IMG/VR virus record: IMGVR_UViG_2740892031_000004
DNA length: 15,282 nucleotides
Direction: 5' to 3' (one strand)
From: a virus
Lineage: Duplodnaviria; Heunggongvirae; Uroviricota; Caudoviricetes
Numbering within the stretch: position 1 is the first letter of the stretch; every line of letters starts with the position of its first letter. The notes below the pieces were generated by a model that was given only the letters and a program-made list of their open reading frames with translations, ran no database searches and was not told the origin of the DNA. The position numbers and the translations under genes were made by a program. Shown here piece after piece: positions 740 to 10,260 of the stretch.

Positions 740-1213
740 TTATTTCAGGCACTGAGTGCGGATATAGTCCTGTGCCCCTTCCAGTTGCTTGTGCATCGTC
801 ATCAGCCGCTCTCTGAGGGTGAAATAATCCCGTGTAACGGTGTCTGCCAGTTGGGGGCCGGTTGCATTATCCACGCCGGAGGTGGTGGGGGCTTCACGCA
901 CGGAGCCTGGACAGGTGGCGTTGATCCGCAGGCGCTTACGACCAGCGGCAACGTCAGCGCGAAGAGTTTCATTTTCAGCTCTCGCATCGGCTAATTCCCT
1001 CGAGTATTTTGCATCGAGCGCAGCAACATCGCGCTGGCGCACCTGCATATCAGTAATGGTTGCGTTCGCCAGCTTCAGTTCACTGGCTTTGTTATCGCGC
1101 TGCGCTTTGTAGGTAATCGCGTTATCACGGTAATGGTCTGTTGCCATCCACAGCGCACCACAGGCCACCAGCAGAATAACGATAAACGCGGAAAGCATTC
1201 GGTTTATGTTCAC
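740..1213 (-). CDS. Rz: i-spanin Rz (lysis cassette)
   Basis: Translation closely matches recalled lambda Rz ([74 protein letters not shown]). Start ambiguous: GTG at 1211-1213 overlaps the upstream stop, or ATG at 1196-1198. Confidence 0.9.
802..987 (-). CDS. Rz1: o-spanin Rz1, embedded in Rz in the +1 frame
   Basis: [22 protein letters not shown] is a lipoprotein signal with lipobox; the proline-rich [26 protein letters not shown] matches recalled lambda Rz1. Lies entirely inside Rz. Confidence 0.85.
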
Positions 1214-1341
1214 CCCAGCAACCCCGACGAAGACAACATCATCCAGGCCATGGAAAGAAAAAGAGCAACCAGCATTAGTGAAAATGAAATGCCGACAATT
1301 ACACAGAGGATCTTCGCCAGCGTTATGAGTTTGTCTGACAT
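1210..1341 (-). CDS. small hydrophobic protein (43 aa), unknown function
   Basis: ATG at 1339-1341 with GGGAGG just upstream; [43 protein letters not shown] is essentially one transmembrane helix. Stop TGA overlaps the Rz GTG. Sits between endolysin and Rz. Confidence 0.4.
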
Positions 1342-1355
1342 GCTTAATCCTCCCT

Positions 1356-1538
1356 TCACGATTTCAACGCAATGACCAGTTTTGCCAGCCCATACAGCAT
1401 CGGGGACACAGCAACACCGACCGCCACCCACTTAATGGCAAAAGCCAGTGCTCTGCTGATGTCATCAGTTACAGGCGCTTTCAGTTCAAGGCCATTTTTC
1501 ATAGTCAACCTCAACAGAATTCGTTTACACTTCGCCAT
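1356..1538 (-). CDS. small protein (60 aa) with C-terminal hydrophobic segment, unknown function
   Basis: ATG at 1536-1538 with AAGGGAG 4 nt upstream; [60 protein letters not shown]. The ORF-track version extends to a GTG at 1571. Confidence 0.4.
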
Positions 1539-2264: not shown

Positions 2265-3155
2265 CTAAATACGCACTTTAAGATAAGTCAGCCCCGGATG
2301 AAGCCAGTAAGCCGGCACTTTTTTAAAGGGTGGAGTATTAAAATCACGAAGAAGAGCCTCCCGCACAATTGCATCCTTATCAGCACCACTGGCCAGCGCT
2401 TCAATCTCAGCGGCTACCTGAAGATATCCCATGCAACGGCCAACGCGCTTCATCAGCCCCTGCTTTTTATTGTTCTTCAGGTAATCAATGGCAAATTCAA
2501 TGAGCTCCTCACTGTGCTGGTGCGATGGAGGTGTTACTTTCCCATTTTCTGAGATGGTTATTTTCCCAGCATCACCGGATACAACAAAGGATGGCCGGTT
2601 ACACTCCCATTCCAGCTCACTGAAATTATCATTATGAATACTGAAACACTCTGCGAGATTTCTGCTCATCACTTTCCGACAATAATCGTCAAACGCAGCA
2701 AACTGCTTTTCATCACCAGAAGGCACCAATATCGACCATTTCTTATTCAGCTCAACGACGTAGCTCTCCAGTTTTTCAATACGTGATTCAACATCATCTT
2801 TTTCTGACCGCAGTGTTGACGGCGGCATCTTCAGAGAACAAGTAATTCTTCCCGGTAGCTTTCCTTTGTAGGTTATCAACACATCCTGCGCCTCTAAAAT
2901 TACGGGGCGCTTTTCCGGCAACGGTTCGTTCCATTCACATAACCCGGCAGCAACATCCATGAAAAACTGCTTCGCCTGCTTTTTCGCCTCAGCTTCGTAA
3001 AACTCCAGCGTGGCACCTTCAGTACGGTCAAGACTAATCGCCACATCTGGCAACAACAGCGACGCTTGCCCGTCACCTTCCGGCTTCACAGTAACAGTAA
3101 CCTTATCCCCGTAATTATTTATCCCCTTAACAACCAGTTCATATTTTTTATTCAT
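2265..3155 (-). CDS. hypothetical protein (296 aa) inserted between holin and endolysin; no recognised domain
   Basis: Long clean ORF. ATG at 3153-3155 lies 4 nt after the holin TAA stop (3160-3162), with a GGGGAGAG SD inside the holin 3' end. No signal peptide or transmembrane segment seen. I do not recognise the sequence. Confidence 0.7.
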   Translation of the reverse strand: MNKKYELVVKGINNYGDKVTVTVKPEGDGQASLLLPDVAISLDRTEGATLEFYEAEAKKQAKQFFMDVAAGLCEWNEPLPEKRPVILEAQDVLITYKGKLPGRITCSLKMPPSTLRSEKDDVESRIEKLESYVVELNKKWSILVPSGDEKQFAAFDDYCRKVMSRNLAECFSIHNDNFSELEWECNRPSFVVSGDAGKITISENGKVTPPSHQHSEELIEFAIDYLKNNKKQGLMKRVGRCMGYLQVAAEIEALASGADKDAIVREALLRDFNTPPFKKVPAYWLHPGLTYLKVRI

Positions 3156-3159
3156 CACT

Positions 3160-3375
3160 TTACTCTCCCCGCGCCGCCTTACGCCGGTCCTCTTTGATTT
3201 TGAAATACAGGTTAGTCAGGTACGTCAGCAGCCCAAACAGCAGACTCCCCAGCACGCCTATTGCCGCCCACTGAGACGGGGAAACCCTGTCCAGCAACTG
3301 CAGGAACCAGTAGCCCGTTCCCACCGCTGACGTGGTGTATGACACACCTGTTGTGATTTTTTCCATCTGGTACAT
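3160..3375 (-). CDS. S: class II holin, phage-21 S21 pinholin type, with dual-start motif
   Basis: [71 protein letters not shown] is near-identical in pattern to recalled S21 / EssD. Two in-frame ATGs (3373-3375 and 3364-3366) fit the holin/antiholin dual-start arrangement; GGGAGA SD upstream. Confidence 0.85.
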
Positions 3376-4053: not shown

Positions 4054-6015
4054 TCATGCCGCGATGTCCGCGTTGTTCACTTCCACCTTCACACTGTCAA
4101 TCAGCAGCGTATATGTCGCCGCCTTTGATATGCCTGTCAGTTGCAGTTTGTCCGCCGCCCCTGATGCCGGAGATTTCACCAGTGTGAACGGCGTCCCCCG
4201 TTTCTCATCCAGTACCGGCGTCACCTGAATGCTGTTGTTTCCGGCAAACTCAAAAGCCAGTGTGTGCCATCCGTTATCAAAGACCCCGAACGTATCCAGC
4301 TTCGCATTCGGCTTCTTGTGGTGCATCGCGTTCAGGTTCGTCGCATCCGTCTGCAGGAAGAAGGACATCAGCATGTCGTTGCCTTCCTCTGCCAGCGTCA
4401 CTCCCTCCGGCAGGGACGACAACTGCCAGTAAATGCCCAGGGCAAACTGATTCGGCACCAGTGAACCCGGCAACTTAAACCGTACGCTCACACGTCCCCC
4501 CTTCTTCAGTAACTCCACTCCCTGTCCGGCTGCATCATGCTCCAGAAACCAGATGTGGTTTTCCGGTTTATTCAGTTGCAGGGCCTTACCTCCCGTAGCC
4601 CCCGCATCACTGACCACCGCTTCAGCAATGTTTTTGTTAACATTGTCTCCGCTCGCCGGTTTGTGATAATAGCGCCAGCCCTGTGATGCCAGGTCTTCGC
4701 CGGACGCCAGCAGACTCATCAGGGTTCGGTTACTGACCGGGGCTTCCGGCTCTCTCTCCGTACCTTCACCGGAAGGTCCGGTGGGCTTCACCGTATCAGG
4801 CTGTTTTCCGGTAATGAATTCAGCGTTTCTCCCGGCATGCACAAGAATCGCCGTTGCCAGACGGTCGGAAATAATCCCACGACGTGCCCATGATCCAAAA
4901 TGCGTTTTACGGTCGGCCGTCGTCCAGGTTTTGGCGTCCGTTCGACCACCGGCTCCGTAATACCCAATATCCGCAACATCCGGATCTTCTGACGGCTCGT
5001 TGGTACCCACATTTCGCCCGTTTTCATCCGTCATAAACGGCACAAAGAAGATTTTTTTTGCGGATTTCGTCTTGTATGCACCATACACCGCATCGTATTG
5101 CGAAGAATAAGTCTGCTTCCAGTAGTAGGTCGTGTCGCCACAAATCCAGGGAACCGATGACGGAGAGCCCCCGAGACACTGACCTCCGAATTCCGACAGG
5201 TCAGAACGATATTTTTCCACCATGGAATCAAACAGCCCCGGCTGAGTGGCGTATGCACCCTGTTTCAAATCAAACTCGCCCTGCATCCAGACCACTGCAA
5301 GCAGAATATTTTTAGGGTTGGCCTTCAGTGCGGCCTGAGTACGGGTAAGCAGGTCCTTGTACAGTGGCTTATCAACACCCCAGCGTGCCGAGGTCTCGCT
5401 TGCGCTGGTGGATTCGCTGAAGGTACCTTCATCGCCCGCCAAAAATGCAGAACCACCACGGCAGCACGGAACCAGAAGAATACCGGCATTCGCCGGAATA
5501 AACGGCAACAATTTCTTCGCGATATGTAATCCCTGCCCCACGCATCCATACTGAGCTGCGCTGGCTTTCGGGTGTGAAAACTTACTCAAATCCTGAACAT
5601 CATGCAGGCAGTGGTCCGCAGGAATAATGTCATTGTAGTTACAGGACGCACCACCCGGCGTGACAGTGCTGCGACGCGCCAGCTGTTTAATACGCGGGTC
5701 CGGACGGTCATATGTCTCCGGCAGCGGAAGCCCTTCACCATACGCCATACCGTTTGACCGCCCGGCTAGGGCAACAACAAAGTAATACTCCGGGTTGCTG
5801 GTGGTGCTGATAACTGCGCCTTCTCCATCCGACGGCTTCACCACCACAGGTGTGGTGACATCACCTTCCGCCGCAATGGCCTGCATCAGGGTATAAGGCG
5901 TGATGGCCACCGGACTGCCAAATGGCTGCCACCCCTCCTTCAGTTTTTGTGTCAGTCGTTTCGCAAGGTCTGACGGCGATGCCGCCCTGACAACATCATA
6001 GTGTTTAAATGCCAT
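4054..6015 (-). CDS. nanS-p: prophage NanS-p-type sialate O-acetylesterase (DUF1737 N-terminus plus SASA esterase region)
   Basis: 653 aa from ATG at 6013-6015 (ORF track gives 658 aa from 6030, which lacks an SD). N-terminus MAFKHYDVV...EGWQPFGSPV matches the DUF1737 pattern seen in the large yjhS/nanS-like proteins downstream of stx in EHEC prophages. Same position relative to Q and S as in Stx phages. Confidence 0.75.
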   Translation of the reverse strand: MAFKHYDVVRAASPSDLAKRLTQKLKEGWQPFGSPVAITPYTLMQAIAAEGDVTTPVVVKPSDGEGAVISTTSNPEYYFVVALAGRSNGMAYGEGLPLPETYDRPDPRIKQLARRSTVTPGGASCNYNDIIPADHCLHDVQDLSKFSHPKASAAQYGCVGQGLHIAKKLLPFIPANAGILLVPCCRGGSAFLAGDEGTFSESTSASETSARWGVDKPLYKDLLTRTQAALKANPKNILLAVVWMQGEFDLKQGAYATQPGLFDSMVEKYRSDLSEFGGQCLGGSPSSVPWICGDTTYYWKQTYSSQYDAVYGAYKTKSAKKIFFVPFMTDENGRNVGTNEPSEDPDVADIGYYGAGGRTDAKTWTTADRKTHFGSWARRGIISDRLATAILVHAGRNAEFITGKQPDTVKPTGPSGEGTEREPEAPVSNRTLMSLLASGEDLASQGWRYYHKPASGDNVNKNIAEAVVSDAGATGGKALQLNKPENHIWFLEHDAAGQGVELLKKGGRVSVRFKLPGSLVPNQFALGIYWQLSSLPEGVTLAEEGNDMLMSFFLQTDATNLNAMHHKKPNAKLDTFGVFDNGWHTLAFEFAGNNSIQVTPVLDEKRGTPFTLVKSPASGAADKLQLTGISKAATYTLLIDSVKVEVNNADIAA

Positions 6016-6208
6016 GGTTCTTTCCACCATCTGAAAAATAATTCTTTAAAATACCTGACATGTAATACAGAAAAAACACAAAACCATACCTTAAATAAAA
6101 ACCTCATCATCAAGCAGATATGCATGGATAAACTACAAGACGAGATATAAACCACCCTGCATTTAAATAAACAATAAACAACATCAGAAAAATAATTCTG
6201 CTCTATGG

Positions 6209-6625: not shown

Positions 6626-6667
6626 TCTGACAAAATCAATATAAACAGCCCCTCCGGAGAGGGGCTG
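6626..6667 (-). terminator. candidate intrinsic terminator (minus strand)
   Basis: GC-rich 9-bp stem CAGCCCCTC / GAGGGGCTG (6646-6667) with 4-nt loop, followed on the minus strand by UUUAUAUUGAUUUUG. Confidence 0.4.
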
Positions 6668-6981
6668 GAGAGTGGCGCTATGTGCCATTGCATGATGCCG
6701 GGTGCCTCCCGGTGAGTTCAGTATCAGCACCTGAACCCGCACAGAAAGGATAAGGGTCGGTGACAAAACACCAGTTGCTGATTGCCCCTCCGCACAGGGG
6801 GATTCACCATGCCAGTTTCTTTTAACAAACTCCCCGCAAACCAGACAACAGTCAACCGCCTGAATTGTGAGGTATTTAAAAATTTCTCCAGATAACTGAT
6901 ACCCGGCTAACAGTCTGGCGTTTTCTTTTTCAGCAACGGGAAAGCAACAACCACCACACCCACCAGCCGCCCATTTACCAC

Positions 6982-9848: not shown

Positions 9849-10004
9849 TTACTCCTCAGGTTCGTAAGCTGTGAAGACAGTGACCTCCGTCTGGCCGGTT
9901 CGGATTCGTACCTCGCAGAGGTCTTTCCTCGTTACCAGTGCCGTCATTATGACGGTTAAACAGATGACGATCAGGGCGATTAACATCGCCTTTTGCTGCT
10001 TCAT
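9849..10004 (-). CDS. hokD: Hok/Gef-family type I toxin (51 aa)
   Basis: Minus-strand translation MKQQKAMLIALIVICLTVIMTALVTRKDLCEVRIRTGQTEVTVFTAYEPEE matches the Hok family and is nearly identical to my recollection of HokD/RelF. AAGGAG SD 9 nt upstream of the ATG at 10002-10004. Below the 60-aa cutoff, so absent from the ORF track. Confidence 0.85.
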   Translation of the reverse strand: MKQQKAMLIALIVICLTVIMTALVTRKDLCEVRIRTGQTEVTVFTAYEPEE

Positions 10005-10260
10005 AGCCTGCTTCTCCTTGACCTTTCGGTCCGTAAGAGGCTAATCTCTATGTGTCGCATAGATATGGCCTCAGATTAATGTTAAGCGTCTTGCAGGACC
10101 GCGTAATGTTAACTGGGGCTTTTCTCTATCTGCCTTTTGGTGTTCATGCCTGAGACAGATAGCCTCAAGCACCCGCAGTCATTCTACTTAACTAAGATTT
10201 CCCCGCAAACCGTTTTTGTCCGGCACAGTAAATATCCAACTAAACCAATGGCGTTCGCTG
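10005..10260 (-). promoter_or_regulatory. hok mRNA leader region (expected site of mok overlap and sok-type antisense control)
   Basis: Non-coding stretch upstream of hok. Hok loci normally carry a long structured leader with an antisense RNA; the individual elements were not resolved here. Confidence 0.3.

Follow-up and report, generated by a model that had tools for sequence, protein, structure and literature searches.

Accounts of lysis in lambdoid and Shiga toxin (Stx) phages usually name four genes: S, R, Rz, and Rz1. Morons, a concept of Hendrix and co-workers, are extra genes inserted among conserved late genes; examples are lambda bor and lom and HK97 gene 15. A promoter of its own precedes the classical moron, and a terminator follows it. 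In phage P2, LysA, a protein with several membrane helices, is encoded between the endolysin gene K and the spanin genes lysB and lysC. There are other small inner-membrane proteins of phages that prevent DNA injection or modify the envelope, and the symE/symR layout is that of a type I toxin-antitoxin locus.

The Hok toxin of one prophage type I locus, hokW-sokW of Sp5, has been shown to help phage release (PMC8621323). In phage Mu, the small membrane-anchored releasin gp25 controls release of the SAR endolysin; it is a 99-aa DUF2730 protein with an N-out/C-in topology and a 73-aa cytoplasmic domain (PMC9239132). XECs191 of E. coli O157:H7 Sakai is a translated, unannotated intergenic ORF, one of 465 candidates, which was classed as “real” and, by prediction, sits in the inner membrane with one helix; the report neither assigned it a function nor linked it to Rz or lysis (Hücker et al. 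2017, PMC5597208).

Here, we describe two small genes, ORF-A and ORF-B, located between the endolysin and Rz genes of a 15,282-nucleotide stretch of viral DNA (IMG/VR record IMGVR_UViG_2740892031_000004; “the window”), which is an E. coli lambdoid prophage. Like morons, the two genes are absent at the lambda junction, lie between conserved genes, and differ from them in GC content, and the same gene can be found at different sites in different phages. They are extra genes between genes that adjoin in relatives, as shown by the lambda R/Rz overlap and by the variable content of the gap, and moron-type accessory genes of late operons is the category that fits them best. The pairing of an own promoter with a downstream terminator was not found for ORF-A. 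Unlike a classical moron, the ORF-A cassette has a hairpin upstream and no detectable promoter, and the next late gene usually begins 2 to 14 nt past the ORF-A stop.

Like P2 LysA and Mu gp25, ORF-A and ORF-B are non-essential-looking membrane proteins encoded beside endolysin and spanin genes, but neither has a family match of that kind, and some ORF-A copies are remote from any endolysin gene. A comparison with releasin gave no DUF2730 or other Pfam match for either protein, and both differ from gp25 in size and topology (PMC9239132). XECs191 is a direct homolog of ORF-B, in the form that follows an antirepressor gene. Both genes are thus already in databases as hypothetical proteins, and one homolog has a published translation signal. 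We found no prior description of the link between ORF-B and Rz, of the multisite distribution of ORF-A, or of its covarying 5′ hairpin, and a literature search by sequence string and accession returned nothing in main texts.

The endolysin-Rz gap and its two small genes

From 1150 to 1750, the window matches E. coli strain 7/2 and others at 100% identity. The original prediction placed two small ORFs, each with a Shine-Dalgarno (SD) site, in a gap of about 480 bp between endolysin and Rz. Their coordinates and SD sites hold (Table 1); the gap measures 481 nt, with both ORFs on the minus strand. The premise that R and Rz are canonically adjacent was also sound: in lambda they overlap by 4 nt, and both ORF-A and ORF-B are absent. 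GC content is 46 to 49% in the two small genes versus 54 to 55% in S, R, and Rz. The endolysin N terminus is weakly hydrophobic and SAR-like by computed hydropathy. In the passages searched of a survey of Stx phage lysis cassettes, Stx phage endolysins in families with an R21-like N-terminal domain are predicted SAR endolysins, and ORF-A and ORF-B are not mentioned (PMC8136144).

Table 1. Features of the window, in order of position
Feature	Position	Strand	Evidence and remarks
Lipoprotein with TonB C-terminal domain	103-429	minus	PF03544; lipobox LAVGC; downstream of Rz
Rz i-spanin	740-1213	minus	PF03245, E 2e-47; start GTG 1213 or ATG 1198
Rz1 o-spanin	802-987	minus	PF06085, E 4e-20; embedded in Rz
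ORF-B, 43 aa	ATG 1341, stop 1210	minus	SD AAGGGAGG at 1355-1349
ORF-A, 60 aa	ATG 1538, stop 1356	minus	SD AGGGAG at 1547-1542
Intrinsic-terminator-like hairpin	1564-1605	minus	Terminator scan and fold; 34 nt upstream of ORF-A ATG
Endolysin	1695-2228	minus	PF00959 (E 2e-24), phrog_7; upstream neighbor of the gap
297-aa ORF, DUF1327 protein	2265-3158	minus	Between pinholin and endolysin
S21-type pinholin	3160-3375	minus	PF04971, E 7e-33
658-aa ORF	4054-6030	minus	Upstream of pinholin
sRNA STnc100	6637-6841	minus	Rfam match above gathering score, 133 bits
sok antitoxin RNA	10002-10174	minus	Rfam match above gathering score, 106 bits

Several neighboring features deserve mention in their own right. 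The 297-aa ORF is a second insertion within the lysis cassette; its residues 1 to 100 are DUF1327/YdfR-like, it matches phrog_1085 over its full length (E 1.5e-189), and in strain 7/2, which is otherwise identical, its counterpart carries the annotation of a truncated pseudogene. The TonB-domain lipoprotein gene sits roughly at the position of lambda bor, and the “Rz-like spanin” label of its family, PHROG 1267, looks like a mis-annotation. At the position of the 658-aa ORF, Stx phages carry a SASA-family sialate esterase (nanS-p/yjhS-like). The early region of the related E. coli 7/2 prophage has an annotated hokD gene, and in a Salmonella locus (L160) STnc100 lies upstream of the holin.

ORFs of this size are common by chance, with 50 ORFs of at least 25 aa within 4 kb. 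The mere presence of ORF-A and ORF-B therefore proves nothing, and conservation is the test. In the RefSeq annotation of an identical prophage, both are hypothetical proteins (ORF-A, WP_001446668.1, 183 nt; ORF-B, WP_001280932.1, 132 nt), and both match phage protein family profiles over their full length (ORF-A, PHROG 1115, E 3.7e-42, residues 1 to 60; ORF-B, PHROG 4906, E 2.1e-23, residues 1 to 43). A search for the two ORFs in related prophages found both conserved.

In ORF-A, dN/dS is 0.1 to 0.2 over codons 13 to 60, with dS up to about 2, and 0.05 to 0.3 over the polar N-terminal residues 3 to 28 in comparisons between genera. Many databases call the protein in a 48-aa form, and a second in-frame ATG (1502-1500, M13) has its own GAGG upstream. 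The purifying selection on the N terminus implies that the 12 residues before Met13 are translated and that the 60-aa form is real. Longer, GTG-initiated versions of the ORFs (71 and 73 aa) were rejected: they lack an SD, their extensions are not conserved, and the extended ORF-A would start inside the terminator tail. Judged by its PHROG family, its dN/dS, and its conservation across genera, ORF-A is a genuine gene.

In ORF-B, dN/dS is 0.02 to 0.3; loci L086 and L072, for example, differ at 13 nt, with a dN of 0.011 and a dS of 0.464. The selection on the last codons may partly reflect the ribosome-binding site of Rz (GGGGTGA). Length variants of ORF-B differ through in-frame deletions only. 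The gene is confined to E. coli/Shigella prophages (29 clusters among 1.84 billion representative proteins) and is present in 276 phage records, mainly of Stx-converting phages, where it is often unannotated. Its Sakai homolog XECs191 has a RIBOseq signal (in LB, RNA RPKM 30.0, ribosome RPKM 12.6, coverage 0.55) obtained from uninduced cultures (PMC5597208), which could reflect lysogenic rather than late expression or spontaneous induction. ORF-B is a genuine gene on the strength of its PHROG family, its dN/dS, and the RIBOseq signal of this homolog.

These data bear directly on the simplest alternative, that ORF-A and ORF-B are chance open frames in a noncoding spacer. The frequency of small ORFs in the window is what such an explanation would predict, but purifying selection, membership in PHROG families, cross-genus conservation, in-frame indels only, and the ribosome footprint on an ORF-B homolog speak against it. 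Conservation already refutes this reading, which we consider extremely improbable. The original prediction had tied its own rejection to an absence of translation signal together with poor conservation of both frames; both frames are conserved, and a translation signal exists for one of the two families.

Both products have the expected features of small hydrophobic membrane proteins, as judged by hydropathy and AlphaFold helices, with one predicted helix each. In ORF-A, the N-terminal ~30 aa are basic and polar (8 Lys/Arg) and are followed by a moderately hydrophobic C-terminal helix of 30 residues (best 19-aa Kyte-Doolittle window, 1.9), after which the protein ends within 2 to 4 residues. 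AlphaFold gives simple helices at 2 to 14 and 25 to 59, with low confidence (pLDDT 63). This composition indicates a tail-anchored, N-in protein of the inner membrane. ORF-B is very hydrophobic (best window, 2.9), carries charges near its N terminus only, without a charged tail, and is modeled as a single helix over residues 2 to 38 (pLDDT 87) followed by 7 to 14 residues; a lipobox is absent.

Neither protein has an informative match in Pfam, NCBIfam, or PADLOC, or a characterized homolog, and Pfam and PHROG scans gave no holin match for either. Holins and antiholins have at least one membrane helix and a charged cytoplasmic tail at the C terminus; the charges of ORF-A are instead N-terminal, and ORF-B has no such tail. 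The suggestion that the two genes arose by duplication, prompted by a weak resemblance between two of their segments, did not survive: the resemblance is no more than chance, hhalign gives a probability of 4.9% and aligns a different segment, and the families are unrelated.

ORF-A and its hairpin in late operons

Homologs of ORF-A were found in E. coli, E. marmotae, and Salmonella and, by profile search, in Klebsiella, Serratia, and another enterobacterium; a plasmid collection gave 16 hits, none informatively annotated. Scanning species-representative genomes with the ORF-A alignment confirmed no locus, as all 26 pattern hits fell short of the tblastn cutoff for a query of this small size. 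In Salmonella lysis cassettes, a family member lies directly before Rz, with ORF-B absent, and another copy lies between a KilA-N gene and Rz. At a tail site, members follow tail-fiber/tail-fiber-assembly genes or a SASA esterase gene and precede a DUF1353 gene, sometimes as tandem paralogs. Others are located within the baseplate clusters of Klebsiella and Serratia prophages, and one lies in a P2-like prophage, flanked by the genes for the tail tube and the tail chaperone. When a lysis-site copy is compared with one from a tail site, DNA similarity is confined to the ORF itself. A terminator downstream of ORF-A was seen at one tail-fiber site (L164) only, among the copies inspected.

Some of these loci have peculiarities of their own. 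In two of them (L169, 3856-4168; L170, 165-528), two tandem ORF-A-family paralogs, one nucleotide apart and unlike in their membrane helices, lie at the end of Salmonella prophages, before a DUF1353 gene. An esterase gene similar to that of the Stx phages adjoins the tail-site copies in Salmonella. Salmonella and phage GER2 have a mini-ORF of 8 codons (ATG TGT/GGT AGG GAG GTx ... CTG TGA) downstream of the hairpin and upstream of the ORF-A homolog (L163, ~1895-1935; L172, ~2465-2500). Its stop overlaps the GTG start (GTGA), and it could encode a leader peptide or serve in coupling.

The intrinsic-terminator-like hairpin upstream of ORF-A consists of an A-tract, a stem (1604-1592 with 1584-1572), a loop (1591-1585), and a U-rich tail to 1564; in the window, a single G>A change weakens the stem. 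In 15/15 diverse copies of the ORF-A family, a homologous GC-rich hairpin with an A-tract on one side and a T-tract on the other lies 25 to 90 nt upstream. In an alignment of 14 of the 15, pairing is kept in 94% of cells, and 5 of the 13 pairs show compensatory double changes (AAAACCCCG/CGGGGTTTT, AAAGCCCCG/CGGGGCTTT, AAACGCCCG/CGGGCGTTT). The covariation score is 0.328 versus 0.10 in shuffles (0/500), and slid controls reach at most 0.056. Because the A-tract on the sense side is conserved, the hairpin is terminator-like in both directions. Rfam gave no match at the hairpin or leader in the window and six related loci; L160 has a subthreshold rimP-leader match on the opposite strand.

Comparison of the copies suggests that the mobile unit is the hairpin, a short leader with an SD, and an ORF of 50 to 68 aa. 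Its recurrence at several unrelated late-operon sites in four genera points to a moron-type gene rather than a dedicated lysis component, and on these comparisons ORF-A is a mobile late-operon cassette that is not strictly part of the lysis cassette. Neither a promoter scan nor comparison of the copies found a conserved sense promoter between the hairpin and ORF-A. A candidate over the hairpin loop (TTGCA-like) was rejected, as its hexamers are too poor and not conserved.

The absence of a promoter, together with an intrinsic terminator directly upstream of every ORF-A copy examined, argues against expression in the lysogen. It thereby argues against the hypothesis that one or both peptides are made by the prophage for lysogenic conversion or superinfection exclusion, blocking DNA injection or altering the envelope. 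Such a role would suit the moron-like distribution of ORF-A, whose sites include classic cargo positions like the end of the tail-fiber region, the GC content below that of neighboring genes, and the detection of XECs191 ribosome footprints without induction. On the other side are also the coupling of ORF-B to the late gene Rz and the lack of a match to the PADLOC defense models. On balance, we find an exclusion role unlikely.

Another hypothesis places ORF-A in a type I toxin-antitoxin-like module, as a toxin that a cis-antisense RNA keeps silent until strong late transcription sets in. In this model, a promoter on the opposite strand within codons 3 to 13 drives an RNA of ~70 to 130 nt that covers the start codon and SD and ends at the hairpin. 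Like prophage type I loci (hok/sok, hokW-sokW of Sp5), ORF-A encodes a small hydrophobic peptide in a prophage, with a possible antisense RNA over its translation start that would end at an intrinsic terminator; at 60 and 43 aa, both ORF-A and ORF-B fit the size and hydrophobicity of type I toxins (small, hydrophobic, ~60 aa or fewer). An antisense −10-like TATACT/TATAAT and a −35-like hexamer (3 to 5 of 6 matches), spaced by 16 or 18 nt, lie at the same position in 14/14 copies. The conserved A-tract would let the hairpin serve as a bidirectional terminator, and the hypothetical 74-nt RNA folds as a 5′ stem-loop plus terminator (z −2.0). Precedents exist in lambdoid prophages, including hokW-sokW, which aids Sp5 release (PMC8621323), and the hokD/sok genes associated with the window.

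Against the type I model, synonymous recoding yields an equally good promoter 5 to 57% of the time, so that the antisense hexamers are not distinguishable from a by-product of the conserved K-Y-K and L-T-M codons. ORF-A shows no sequence similarity to hok/sok loci; a dedicated toxin promoter was not found, the antisense promoter is putative, and Rfam gave no match. Strong conservation of the polar N-terminal domain would also be unusual for a type I toxin. We regard the type I explanation of ORF-A as rather unlikely.

A moron-like cassette is our preferred reading of ORF-A. With no promoter of its own and a terminator upstream, ORF-A is presumably expressed by read-through of the late operon.

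ORF-B and the Rz gene

We surveyed about 150 loci for the forms taken by the gap. The commonest, at about 484 nt, holds ORF-A followed by ORF-B. Others hold ORF-A and a 28-aa peptide, “C” (435 nt); ORF-B flanked by a truncated second ORF-A copy and C (700 nt); or, in Stx phages, an antirepressor gene (ant) and ORF-B (about 1,000 nt). Peptide C is a truncated copy from a second subtype of the ORF-A family, whose full-length form immediately precedes the spanin gene of phages GER2 and phiSTEC1575. The 601-nt region is at least 80% present in 989 of 5,426 complete E. coli genomes.

Two of these arrangements have features worth recording. In the 700-nt form (L053, L060, and L155), the order is ORF-A, ORF-B, a 5′-truncated second ORF-A, and the truncated paralog C; the second ORF-A copy is fused in a different frame to the end of ORF-B, and gene callers report the fusions P0079, P0094, and P0097. 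In phiSTEC1575-Stx2k (L171), a 60-aa lipoprotein gene (2655-2837; lipobox LLVGC) lies directly after the ORF-A paralog, at the expected position of Rz, and the stretch examined has no annotated Rz gene; the lipoprotein gene may be an unusual outer-membrane-disruption gene.

Rz starts no more than 120 nt after ORF-B in 49 of 51 distinct places, and the two exceptions are probably the B-A′-C-Rz rearrangement. ORF-B precedes Rz in three settings: behind ORF-A, behind the antirepressor gene, and in company with an M15-peptidase endolysin and different holins. All ORF-B variants end in GGGGTGA. The contact between the ORF-B stop and the Rz start, part of the original prediction, is as described: the TGA at 1212-1210 overlaps the GTG at 1213-1211. 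PGAP places the Rz start at the ATG at 1198, 11 nt after the GTG/stop overlap region. In a relative (L096), that ATG is replaced by ATT, which favors the GTG, and the GTG within GGGGTGA is the likely Rz start in Rz genes of the window type. In Stx-type Rz, the start is an ATG 8 nt past the ORF-B stop.

Of the two genes, ORF-B alone is tightly tied to Rz; ORF-A, with its copies at unrelated late-operon sites, is not a strict component of the lysis cassette. As far as sequence comparison goes, ORF-B is most likely an evolutionary part of the spanin module. By its features it is not itself a spanin: it has no lipobox, the tail after its helix is short, and its similarity to the Rz anchor is marginal.

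Another reading is that the ORF-B peptide itself has no function. It might be a leftover 5′ fragment of Rz, or merely an upstream ORF that delivers ribosomes to Rz after foreign DNA parted R from Rz. The GTGA stop/start overlap, or the 8- to 11-nt spacing to Rz, would serve such a device, much as lambda Rz is coupled to R, and ORF-B marginally resembles the N-terminal membrane anchors of Rz from lambda and from Salmonella, significantly so only under the lenient null of whole-segment shuffles (P of 0.004 and 0.0008, respectively). Under a membrane-segment-only null, however, that similarity is marginal, with P ranging from 0.006 to 0.7 across Rz types. Both the amino acid sequence of ORF-B and its length of 43 aa have been maintained, with dN/dS as low as 0.02. 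In Stx phages, moreover, the ORF-B ATG has become ATA, and an in-frame start upstream, overlapping the stop of ant, has taken over. A functionless peptide is, in our judgment, quite improbable.

Possible roles in lysis and in toxin release

We propose that ORF-A and ORF-B encode independent, late-expressed accessory peptides of the inner membrane, ORF-A as a moron-like cassette and ORF-B as part of the spanin module, an explanation to which we give about an even chance. Each would be a single-pass peptide with a cytoplasmic N terminus. The ORF-A cassette would have entered the late operons of temperate Enterobacteriaceae phages at many different intergenic sites, and the wide range of these sites argues against a lysis-specific partner. 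Both genes would be expressed late; ORF-A is probably made only on antiterminated late read-through, together with lysis and virion genes. In lambdoid phages, such read-through is supplied by the Q-modified polymerase. A strong terminator before essential tail genes in the P2-like prophage is hard to square with pure read-through expression of ORF-A, and a P2-like phage is not known to use antitermination.

Tight silencing combined with a tail-anchored hydrophobic product suggests that ORF-A is membrane active, potentially toxic, and late acting. We speculate that in a cassette with a pinholin and a SAR endolysin, perturbation of the membrane by ORF-A could advance or sharpen lysis, in a manner comparable to the help that HokW gives to Sp5 release (PMC8621323). 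ORF-B is kept directly in front of Rz and is translationally coupled to it, whatever the upstream gene or the type of holin and endolysin, and its predicted membrane orientation is that of the Rz anchor. Its most likely role would be to pair with Rz, or to modulate Rz or the timing of lysis, as a small transmembrane peptide acting through helix-helix contacts.

A more far-reaching version would make ORF-A a hitherto unrecognized, self-contained kind of “terminator-first” mobile membrane toxin, silenced by a cis-antisense RNA that ends at the 5′ hairpin and hopping between the late operons of unrelated temperate phages to tune killing or lysis, with ORF-B as a small dedicated regulator of the Rz-Rz1 spanin. 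We consider this version improbable.

About one in five complete E. coli genomes has both membrane-peptide genes inside a lysis cassette, and most Stx phages carry ORF-B, usually unannotated. The ORF-A cassette offers a clean case of the spread of a small gene between late operons, and the 5′ terminator hairpin that travels with it is outside the textbook moron layout. If either peptide alters lysis timing or spanin action, phage burst and the release of Shiga toxin would be affected.
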